A stretch of DNA of 62,723 nt, filler included, from Actinomycetota bacterium (GTDB lineage Bacteria; Actinomycetota; Acidimicrobiia; IMCC26256; VFJJ01): NCBI GenBank assembly GCA_009886115.1. It is 3 parts of 3 records of this genome, joined end to end, with 100 filler letters (N's around TTAATTAATTAA, not from the genome) between each part and the next. Parts side by side here need not be neighbours in the genome. Positions count along the whole stretch, not along the records: positions 45,888 to 62,723 come from VFJJ01000071.1; 2 more parts are not named here. One strand, 5' to 3'. The notes under the pieces are model-generated. The model worked only from the letters and a program-made list of their open reading frames with translations, was not told the DNA's origin and did not search any database. This document shows positions 61,491-62,712 of the stretch, one piece after another. Within the stretch, counting starts at the first letter, position 1, and each line of letters starts with the position of its first letter. The position numbers and the translations under genes were made by a program.

Positions 61491-61560
61491 CATCCCCAAC
61501 CATCTCCAACCATCTCCAACCATCTCCAACCATCTCCAACCATCTCCAACCATCTCCAAC
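61491..61560. repeat. 10-bp tandem repeat (CATCTCCAAC)x7 merging into hairpin copy 3
   Basis: Six perfect units plus one variant (CATCCCCAAC). Confidence 0.95.
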
Positions 61561-61605
61561 TGTCAGCGTGGCGGGCCGTATCCGGCCCCTCACGCTGACA
61601 GTTGG
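61556..61605. repeat. 50-bp palindromic REP-like element, copy 3 (contains the DUF559 gene stop codon)
   Basis: CCAACTGTCAGCGTGGCGGGCCG-TATC-CGGCCCCTCACGCTGACAGTTGG. Confidence 0.92.
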
Positions 61606-62564
61606 CCGGGGCGGGTTGCCGTGCCTCGCTCCTGCCGCTCTCGCGCTCGGCGGATGAGCCCGGCGACGCTGTCGGGATCGGTCGTGATGTCGTCATACGA
61701 GATCTCGATCACGATCCACCCCCGGGCGACGAGCTCAGAGCGCTTGCGCTTGTCGATCGCCCACATCCGGCGACCGGCGTGGAAGCGGTAGCCATCGACC
61801 TCGATGGCAATCTTCATCTCGGGGTAGGCGAAGTCGGGGCGGGCCACGTGCTTGCCCCCATCGTGCACCCGGTGCTGGCTGACCATCGGCGCCAGCCCGG
61901 CGTTGATCGTGAGCCGGCGCATGAGTGTCTCGAGGGCGCTGGCCGAGGTGGCGCCGATGCCCTTGCGTTCCTCGAGCAGCACTCGGAGACGACGTGCGCC
62001 CTTGCGGCCCCGCTTGGCAACGGCGTTGCTCCGCCAGAGCACGGTGAGCCGTGACACCCGCCCTGCGCGTAGCGCCGAGTCGAGCGCTATCTCGAGCGCC
62101 ACAGGACCGAGCACACCAGCCAGGTCGACCACCGTGCGGGCCAAGCTGGTCACCGCCAGACCGTCGATGGCGTCCCGGTCGGGCATGTCGAGCGTCCGGA
62201 CGTTGCGCACCTTCAGGCCCGGCTGCGACCGAAGCCCGAGGGCCCTGGGAACCGAGATCTCGACATCGTCTGTGACGGCGGGCTCTCGATCGAGACCGTC
62301 GAGGCTCCAGAGAAACGCGGCCGTCCGTCCCGAGAGCACGCTTTCGGGCCCCGCCCACAGCAGCGCGGCCCAGCATCGTTGGGCAAACGATGGTGGAGCC
62401 CCGACAGGCGCGTAGACCCCGACGTGGAGAGAACGCCAGACCCCTGCACGGAGCCGACGCTTCAAGGTGGTCGCCGGCAGCTCGGTGGCAATCACTTGCG
62501 CGAGGGAGAAGGCACCGTGCTGGCGGTCGGCGTGCTGGAGGAGCAGAGCTTCGGGATCGACCAT
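61590..62564 (-). CDS. AbiEi-like N-terminus + DUF559/Vsr-like PD-(D/E)xK endonuclease
   Basis: ADRQHGAFS, HVGVY, VLSGRTAA, VTSLARTVVDLA, SALET, RPDFAYP..KIAIEVDG..FH, D..K...L...GW.VI. Confidence 0.88.
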   Translation of the reverse strand: MVDPEALLLQHADRQHGAFSLAQVIATELPATTLKRRLRAGVWRSLHVGVYAPVGAPPSFAQRCWAALLWAGPESVLSGRTAAFLWSLDGLDREPAVTDDVEISVPRALGLRSQPGLKVRNVRTLDMPDRDAIDGLAVTSLARTVVDLAGVLGPVALEIALDSALRAGRVSRLTVLWRSNAVAKRGRKGARRLRVLLEERKGIGATSASALETLMRRLTINAGLAPMVSQHRVHDGGKHVARPDFAYPEMKIAIEVDGYRFHAGRRMWAIDKRKRSELVARGWIVIEISYDDITTDPDSVAGLIRRARERQERGTATRPGQLSA

Positions 62565-62608
62565 GCCCACCACGATGCCAGTGGGGTGTGACAGGAACTC
62601 CCCATGCC

Positions 62609-62658
62609 TCAACTGTCAGCGTGGCGGGCCGTATCCGGCCCGCCACGCTGACAGTTGG
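62609..62658. repeat. 50-bp palindromic REP-like element, copy 4 (perfect 22-bp stem)
   Basis: CAACTGTCAGCGTGGCGGGCCG-TATC-CGGCCCGCCACGCTGACAGTTG. Confidence 0.92.
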
Positions 62659-62712
62659 GCCGTTGCCGTTGCCGTTGCCGTTGCCGTTGCCGTTGCCGTT
62701 GCCGTTGCCGTT
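62659..62712. repeat. 6-bp tandem repeat (GCCGTT)x9 abutting hairpin copy 4
   Basis: Seen directly. Confidence 0.95.

Follow-up and report, generated by a model that had tools for sequence, protein, structure and literature searches.

Short inverted-repeat elements that are gained and lost at extragenic sites include miniature inverted-repeat transposable elements (MITEs) and insertion sequence (IS) elements. In the REPIN-RAYT systems, as the available part of the account by Bertels and Rainey describes them (bioRxiv 10.1101/2021.07.10.451892), the repeats are ∼100-bp doublets of two repetitive extragenic palindromic (REP) hairpins with a variable spacer, and the enzyme is an HUH-Y1 transposase. 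Two other proteins, from unrelated literatures, are relevant here. The operator of AbiEi antitoxins is, in the accessible portions of two reports, a 23-3-23 inverted repeat that takes one monomer per half and is perfect in its outer 11 bp (PMC3985639; PMC7319586). The homing endonuclease I-Bth0305I is, according to the available part of its description, a dimer that cuts a pseudo-palindrome, makes contacts over up to 60 bp and carries an EDxHD motif (PMC3239194). Here we analyze a 62,723-nt stretch of DNA (the window) from an Actinomycetota bacterium (assembly GCA_009886115.1), in which a gene encoding a fusion of AbiEi with an EDxHD nuclease lies between two copies of a dispersed palindrome.

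The layout of this locus is like that of REPIN-RAYT systems, as far as the accessible part of that preprint covers them: a single-copy chromosomal gene is flanked by its own short extragenic palindrome family, several such pairs exist per genome, the target gene appears to be inherited vertically at its locus and has no plasmid match, and repeats are fewer where the gene is missing. It differs in that the enzyme is an AbiEi protein with an EDxHD/Vsr-like nuclease instead of an HUH-Y1 transposase, in that the repeats are single palindromes of fixed length (46-52 bp) instead of doublets, and in the high turnover of the gene between congeners. With MITEs and IS elements the repeats share gain and loss at extragenic sites; unlike them, the system shows no transposase fold and apparently no consistent target duplication, and its flanking copies can lie in either orientation. 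On balance we favor the reading, with moderate confidence, that this is a REPIN/RAYT-like two-part system of different origin, built from an AbiEi antitoxin, its operator and a nuclease.

The window consists of three contigs joined by N runs, taken from a source assembly (G000) of 5.45 Mb with 69.5% G+C and 95.6% completeness. It was compared with a congener (G001) that is ∼84% identical across the gene region; both are draft genomes, and gene predictions in G000 come from a codon model built for this analysis. The gene (61590..62564, minus strand) encodes 324 residues, with its ATG at 62564 and its TGA within the left palindrome, as had been noticed in the original prediction. The downstream copy of the palindrome (61557..61604) and the upstream copy (62610..62657, 45-93 nt before the ATG) have the same orientation and the same asymmetric centre. 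They had been described as 50 bp long; both copies are indeed present, but the perfect core is 48 bp (22-4-22, or 14-8-4-8-14, with 14-bp arms, 8-bp inner stems and a 4-bp centre), and the extra bases, one at either end, form a pair in the left copy but not in the right. Within the window the 14-mer arm matches at 8 places where 0.52 would be expected, a count equalled in 0 of 100 shuffles. The lone copies reported at 40815 and 43597 are real, the first (40816..40863) directly past a stop codon and the second (43598..43645) between convergent genes; because the window is a join of three contigs, they lie on a different contig from the gene, and the second is inverted. Between the upstream repeat and the ATG we found a family-specific motif (62584..62593, minus strand), which occurs no more than 60 nt before 23 of 54 family genes, compared with 69 of 4,757 genes overall, and which is probably part of a leaderless promoter.

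The protein has an AlphaFold model (mean predicted local distance difference test score 93.8) with two cleanly separate parts. Residues 3-201 (61962..62558, minus strand) form a complete AbiEi fold, with winged helix and C-terminal domain, that superimposes on AbiEi of Streptococcus agalactiae (6Y8Q; VIA-align Z 12.7, root-mean-square deviation (rmsd) 4.4, 185/195 residues) and on Rv2827c (Z 9.7). Foldseek matched this part at E 2.3e-6 and was consistent with the assignment of both domains by structure alignment. Residues 208-313 (61626..61943, minus strand) form a Vsr-like/EDxHD nuclease domain, which aligns with the catalytic domain of I-Bth0305I (3R3P; Z 9.8, rmsd 2.5, 96/98 residues) and with Vsr (Z 7.6). 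The sole sequence match of the protein in the PDB was likewise 3R3P (phmmer E 0.0086), and both sequence and modelled fold suggest I-Bth0305I as the closest relative of the nuclease domain. In Pfam, AbiEi_4 scored above the cut-off (E 1.8e-7), DUF559 just above it and Vsr below it. Structure and Pfam thus bear out the earlier description of an AbiEi-like N-terminus joined to a Vsr-like nuclease. Among 54 full-length homologs, the predicted catalytic residues D244 and E255 are present in all 54, E212 in 53, H262 and D271 in 50 each, and D257 in 45, a pattern that fits the EDxHD motif reported for I-Bth0305I. In two paralogs of the source genome, C70 and C74, D257 and H262 are replaced by K and R, which creates a canonical E-x-K motif; the same two own the smallest repeat families (3 and 13 copies).

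This protein shares with the type IV antitoxins AbiEi and Rv2827c the whole AbiEi fold, but unlike AbiE systems it has an extra C-terminal nuclease and, in agreement with the original prediction, no adjacent AbiEii toxin. Its neighbours are an MDMPI gene and, by synteny with G001, a Gfo/Idh/MocA oxidoreductase gene, and an AbiE toxin-antitoxin pair can be set aside since no AbiEii/DUF1814 nucleotidyltransferase partner stands beside the gene. The genes adjacent to the other paralogs are likewise unrelated, as judged from N-terminal sequences only. With I-Bth0305I and Vsr, the nearest solved nuclease domains, the protein shares the E, D, H and D positions that are conserved among them; unlike I-Bth0305I, its DNA-binding part is AbiEi and not NUMOD, and its presumed site is kept beside the gene instead of being interrupted by it. 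An intron- or intein-borne homing endonuclease was rejected because the gene is a free-standing open reading frame (ORF) between complete genes. Structure searches with the protein model found no HUH fold, and no Y1 transposase was found in G000 (0 matches to PF01797, with a model that detects 6 of 14 controls); identity with RAYT was rejected, the protein being accounted for by its AbiEi and Vsr-like parts. AziN, a glyoxalase-family protein in the available part of its report (PMC7145581), is unrelated. The family to which the protein belongs is very large, with 8,882 clusters at 50% identity (E ≤ 1e-10), and a scan of a collection of genome contigs with the single protein gave 2 loci; all 143 members of our alignment match PADLOC AbiEi models, and the gene is carried by 57 of 151 sampled Actinomycetota genomes, three of which (G149, G031 and G078) are marked unpublished and enter no other result.

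Evidence that gene and repeat belong together comes from the paralogs. A profile search of G000 gave 7 full-length paralogs plus 2 AbiEi-only homologs. Each of the 7 full-length paralogs is bracketed by its own palindrome family, with the flanking pair direct in 5 and inverted in 2; the 2 AbiEi-only homologs have no repeat pair, and repeats of one family bracket only 4 of the ∼4,840 other predicted genes. On the question of chance enrichment, this comparison speaks in favor of the original prediction. The seven cognate families are 46-52 bp long and have 3, 13, 40, 47, 66, 20 and 28 full-length copies in G000, the target gene's family amounting to 39-40 copies in the assembly. No neighbour gene is conserved across the paralogs. 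An unbiased palindrome scan of G000 revealed two further families, I and H, and family I has its cognate gene in the congener G001. Copies of two other paralogs' families also occur without a gene in the window, at 22529..22580 (cognate gene on contig C61) and at 57326..57372 (cognate gene on contig C196).

The pairing extends beyond these two genomes. In surveys of best-hit or best-scoring loci, a repeat shared up- and downstream was found at 20 of 28 foreign loci from the same order (22 of 30 with two own loci included), compared with 1 of 54 in a shifted control, and at 21 of 47 loci across the phylum, compared with 0 of 45 in the control; the phylum-wide survey left out five loci, of which two belong to unpublished genomes, one to the source genome itself, one is a duplicate and one is cut. 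A looser scoring gave 43 pairs among 54 loci, but this count includes the 7 own genes and has no control, and we prefer the two controlled counts. The check for cognate hairpins put forward in the original prediction came out in its favor: no two paralogs share a family, and repeats are alike where the proteins are closely related, with an arm identity of 75% for proteins that are >60% identical (5 pairs), against a background of 46%.

What kind of site are these repeats? In each family the outer 10-14 bp are conserved and the interior is variable, and length parity is nearly invariant (39/40, 49/49, 66/66, 21/21, 28/28 and 13/13 copies). In size and layout, including the conserved outer segments, they are like the AbiEi operator as the accessible portions of its descriptions give it (PMC3985639; PMC7319586). 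Inner positions covary in three families, including that of the target gene (0, 0 and 7 of 2,000 permutations), and do not in three others. Mismatches on the transcribed strand comprise 87 G.T and 90 A.C, and a T-rich tract occurs at 2 of 436 repeat ends; this parity and the rarity of T tracts indicate that the repeats are not terminators. Rfam returned sub-threshold hairpin matches only, none at gathering score. Taken together, the fixed length, the AbiEi-operator geometry and the missing terminator signal make the repeats look like double-stranded binding sites of the AbiEi operator type more than single-stranded DNA or RNA hairpins.

Unlike AbiE operators, these sites occur by the tens across the genome at the 3' ends of genes, and they appear to lie off the promoter. 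The repeat upstream of a family gene lies 45-210 nt away, beyond the putative promoter motif. Only 7 of 220 repeats fall inside predicted genes, and the sites are enriched after stop codons; 84 of 198 sites lie in convergent gaps (440 of 2,781 gaps overall) and only 16 of 198 in divergent promoter gaps (714 of 2,781 overall). This enrichment past stop codons and between convergent genes, together with the depletion from divergent gaps, is the pattern of tolerated insertion and not that of a regulon. Tandem arrays adjoin 24 of 432 repeat flanks, compared with 45 of 2,397 gaps overall and 25 of 401 convergent gaps; because convergent gaps contain arrays just as often, we claim no enrichment. About half of these 24 arrays come to an end ∼7 bases or less from the stem, which would fit slippage at the repeat edge. 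At the locus itself, a 10-bp tandem array (61496..61560) that is absent in G001 reaches the base of the left repeat, and a 6-bp microsatellite (62659..62713) adjoins the right one, where the contig breaks off and its sequence resumes on contig C196. Contigs of two public sequencing runs appear to have 3-4 fewer units of the 10-bp array, whose copy number appears to vary between strains. Joints that skip 1,083-1,093 bases in the contigs of two runs are read as shorter tandem arrays; excision of the gene was rejected as their cause, since one side of each joint has only 26-27 letters, which fit either repeat.

Comparison of the congeners shows that the repeats turn over, and the empty sites that had been proposed as a check were indeed found between G000 and G001. 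Synteny was examined for 16 of the 29 G001 sites of the target gene's own family, ∼21 of 27 for family I, 21 of 23 for J and 19 of 23 for K. Among G001 sites with two-sided synteny, the repeat is common to both genomes at 6 of 11 in the target gene's family, 8 of 9 in C196, 8 of 17 in I, 0 of 6 in J and 0 of 13 in K, the last two being young families; 37 further G001 sites lacked synteny. The empty-site differences are in some cases a clean 51-54 bp and in many 60-130 bp with C-rich and G-rich flanks, mostly with variable junctions at ∼85% identity. No consistent target duplication was seen at the empty sites, with one possible duplication of 4 bp. At shared sites, the outer 14 bp are unchanged, but in both arms 4-5 inner bp can change in step to the allele that dominates in that genome: in G000 one inner allele accounts for 24 of 62 arms, as against 1 of 32 in G001, and another is found in 0 of 62 and 13 of 32, respectively (22 of 58 G001 arms in a larger count). 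The copies that flank the gene bear the locally dominant inner allele in both genomes. Among 34 sites without a same-family repeat, 8 are occupied by a repeat of another family (2.7 expected, p 0.006). In one young family, 3 of 13 sites are occupied in the other genome by the repeat of its sister gene, and repeat families may thus replace each other in place.

Several loci in G001 have further features. At L073 (contig C24), an ATPase-like gene has on either side, at a short distance, a family gene; these two are sisters, and their repeats differ. In G000, the repeat of the older family occupies three sites of the younger one, at one of them in register. At L071 (1720-1960) and L144, an 84-bp unit containing a whole family I repeat is tandemly duplicated, once directly 5' of the cognate gene. 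At L074 (2145-3170), the reading frame of the upstream oxidoreductase gene runs on into the repeat and takes its final codons from it; its counterpart in G000 stops before the repeat.

Copy number follows the gene as well. G001 has 5 full-length genes and 1 cut by a contig end, of which three are orthologous to genes of G000 and three are its own (I, J and K). For the G001-only genes, the same search pattern gives 23 copies in G001 and 1 in G000 for J, 23 and 1 for K, and 27 and 12 for I; profile searches of G000 with the J and K repeats, whose search patterns were derived from G001, gave 0 hits. In the target gene's family, whose gene is present in both, one common search found 34 copies in G000, 29 in G001 and 0 in 29 other relatives. 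Copy number tracks gene presence in three informative families. For the G000-only genes the copies in G000 and G001 are 7 and 2 (C74), ∼15 and 5 (C76), and 27 and 4 (C178); these contrasts run in the same direction but carry little weight, because they do not exceed that of C196, a shared family.

The target gene is syntenic in G001, with a protein 78% identical and the same downstream MDMPI gene, and the upstream flank of the ortholog matches the end of G000 contig C196. Far from having lost the hairpins, the ortholog retains both, the downstream one at ragged contig ends. The two orthologs give dN/dS 0.23 at dS 0.67, with dS 0.36-0.59 for three neighbours, and these values indicate purifying selection and, with the synteny, point to vertical inheritance at the locus. 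Only 3 of 10 distinct genes are common to both congeners. Of the 7 genes present in one congener only, three (C76, I and J) correspond to a gene-less site with a solo cognate repeat, which fits gene loss by recombination between direct copies, and three (C70, C178 and K) to a gene-less site without a repeat, which fits arrival of a cassette or loss together with the flanks; the C74 site is not two-sided syntenic. No homolog was found among 72,556 plasmids (1e-10) or 50,697 phages (1e-5). The original suggestion that the gene is an autonomous member of the repeat family holds in part: the family turns over between congeners, but the target gene appears to be passed on vertically at its locus.

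How might such a system work? We suggest that the system arose when an AbiEi antitoxin acquired a C-terminal EDxHD nuclease and retained its operator of two half-sites. In double-stranded DNA, each half (22-25 bp) of the cognate palindrome would take one of two monomers, the way AbiEi binds its operator, and specificity would come from the conserved outer 10-14 bp. This would bring two nuclease domains near the palindrome centre, where they could nick or break the DNA, and repair from another copy or by fold-back would rewrite the inner bases and homogenize the family. Rarely, a new copy would arise at an extragenic site, mostly just past a stop codon, through recombination or end-joining (Ku is present in G000). 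The gene would remain single-copy per family and pass vertically over long periods; recombination between direct flanking copies would remove it and leave a solo repeat; and an occasional duplication or arrival of a gene with changed specificity would seed a new family. What the analysis shows is the architecture and the comparative genetics of gene and repeats; that the protein binds, cuts and copies the repeats is what we infer. A homodimer prediction scored 0.00 and was counted in neither direction. The REP/RAYT-like reading put forward in the original prediction gains support from the bracketing, the cognate families and the repeat turnover, and none of its refuting conditions that could be examined by computation applied, with causation by the protein still a matter of interpretation.

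Several observations weigh against this reading. Nucleases of the PD-(D/E)xK type are not known to have a strand-joining chemistry, so that their activity would not account for new copies, and the empty sites have variable junctions and no consistent target duplication. Neither assembly contains a cognate gene for repeat family H (25-28 copies), which counts against strict pairing of gene and repeat; this family resembles the C178 family and may be a subfamily of it, or its gene may fall in an assembly gap. In one actinobacterial family (f38), all 9 sampled genomes carry the gene, often in multiple copies, yet 0 of the 9 best-scoring loci have a repeat pair, indicating that repeats are not required for the gene to persist. 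The overall correlation between protein and repeat is weak (Mantel rho 0.14; 10 of 2,000 permutations, which ignore kinship), and winged-helix identity does not track repeat identity, so that the winged helix is unsupported as the determinant of specificity. The excess of copies in G000 for its private genes is no larger than that for the shared family C196 (63 vs 15), and the contrast between gene presence and copy number rests on two draft genomes and is not a statistical test. As a separate observation on f38, the repeat-less homologs at loci L154, L155, L156 and L168 begin, by eye, just past apparent tRNA 3' ends.

Could the mobile unit instead be the whole repeat-gene-repeat cassette, IS-like or homing-like, with the solo repeats as its targets or footprints and not a population replicated by the protein? 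The small number of genes shared by the congeners, the gene-less orthologous sites with and without a solo repeat, and the kinship of the nuclease with a homing endonuclease all speak for a cassette. Nevertheless we judge it unlikely: each repeat family comprises 3-66 repeats but a single gene copy, the target gene keeps its syntenic place with dS 0.67 beside 0.36-0.59 for three neighbours, flanking pairs occur in both orientations, plasmids and phages gave no match, and the filled allele retains two intact sites, where classical homing would destroy the site. We consider it quite improbable that the proteins are host-domesticated DNA-binding proteins with operator-like sites selected for a host function, be it as a regulon, as a roadblock to transcription or in the organisation of the chromosome, and with a nuclease domain that is incidental. 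AbiEi proteins do repress through inverted repeats, according to the available parts of the reports (PMC3985639; PMC7319586), the gene is under apparent purifying selection, and the sites are enriched between convergent genes. The same sites, however, are depleted from divergent promoter gaps and arise as whole 50-bp insertions, 23 of them within one species; the catalytic residues are retained; and the repeat lies upstream of the putative promoter without covering it, with a second copy at the stop codon.

The slim chance that we allow to repeats being MITE-like elements moved by another enzyme, which the AbiEi-nuclease binds, polices or edits, or which merely collect beside the gene, reflects a balance of a different sort. 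The AbiEi-nuclease has no evident joining activity, the occupation of 8 of 34 sites by another family's repeat suggests shared hot spots, and family H has no gene; against these stand the one-to-one pairing across 7 paralogs and many genomes, the lack of a conserved neighbour gene and of a consistent target duplication, and the failure to find a Y1 transposase in G000, other transposase families not being surveyed. That the palindromes are RNA hairpins, serving as bidirectional terminators or stabilisers and paired with the gene by chance, we find scarcely credible. Enrichment past stop codons and between convergent genes would suit such hairpins, as would the inner covariation in three families, but G.T mismatches are no commoner than A.C, T-rich tails are nearly absent, Rfam gave nothing at gathering score, three families show no covariation, length is fixed, and chance cannot yield bracketing of 7 out of 7 genes. 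As an explanation of the pairing, RNA hairpins are already largely refuted, though the repeats may affect transcripts as a by-product. The two-part system of AbiEi-nuclease and operator-derived repeat is the reading that we retain.

Other features of the window touch on related themes. At its start, the end of an AbiEi-only gene (1-405, plus strand), without nuclease domain or flanking repeats, overlaps a 71-residue ORF (402-617, plus strand) that has no Pfam match and contains a KGG motif like that of AbiEii toxins; the ORF is perhaps a truncated toxin gene. Two short ORFs (43695-44500, minus strand) adjoin the repeat at 43598; the product of the first resembles, by eye, a PIN-domain (VapC-like) protein, and the two may form a type II toxin-antitoxin pair. 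A 1135-residue ORF (53380-56787, plus strand) looks by eye like a secreted metallopeptidase with several repeated C-terminal domains, and an imperfect tandem repeat (59690-59760) in the 3' end of an alcohol dehydrogenase gene encodes a QTTQVP-repeat tail.

The repeat layout is a real, non-random feature and probably belongs to an undescribed repeat-propagating system. In the full-text literature covered, which excludes most subscription journals, we found no paper linking AbiEi or DUF559 genes to dispersed palindromes; the available part of a survey of GTAG/CGTC repeats (PMC3733652) contains no occurrence of Actino, Mycobact or DUF, and the accessible part of a further preprint (bioRxiv 10.64898/2026.01.19.700257) does not mention DUF559. 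On whether these genes make up another class of REPIN-like genomic replicators with an evolutionary origin of its own, in which a toxin-antitoxin repressor was fused with a homing-endonuclease domain, its operator has turned into a self-spreading repeat and each family member reads its own 46-52-bp site, our opinion is evenly divided.

The spread and persistence of short bacterial palindromes have so far had one worked example, the proteobacterial RAYT transposases, and here an unrelated enzyme in Actinomycetota appears to show a RAYT-like ecology. Such a system would explain a large protein family that currently goes under the names 'orphan antitoxin' or DUF559, and would give it an origin from antitoxin, operator and nuclease. 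The question is directly testable, because each protein is accompanied by the site predicted for it. Should these sites be cut by the enzymes, small nucleases with long targets, each of them different, would number in the thousands, and they would form a natural library of dimeric long-site nucleases, compact (∼310 residues) and each with a target that is readable from the DNA beside its gene.

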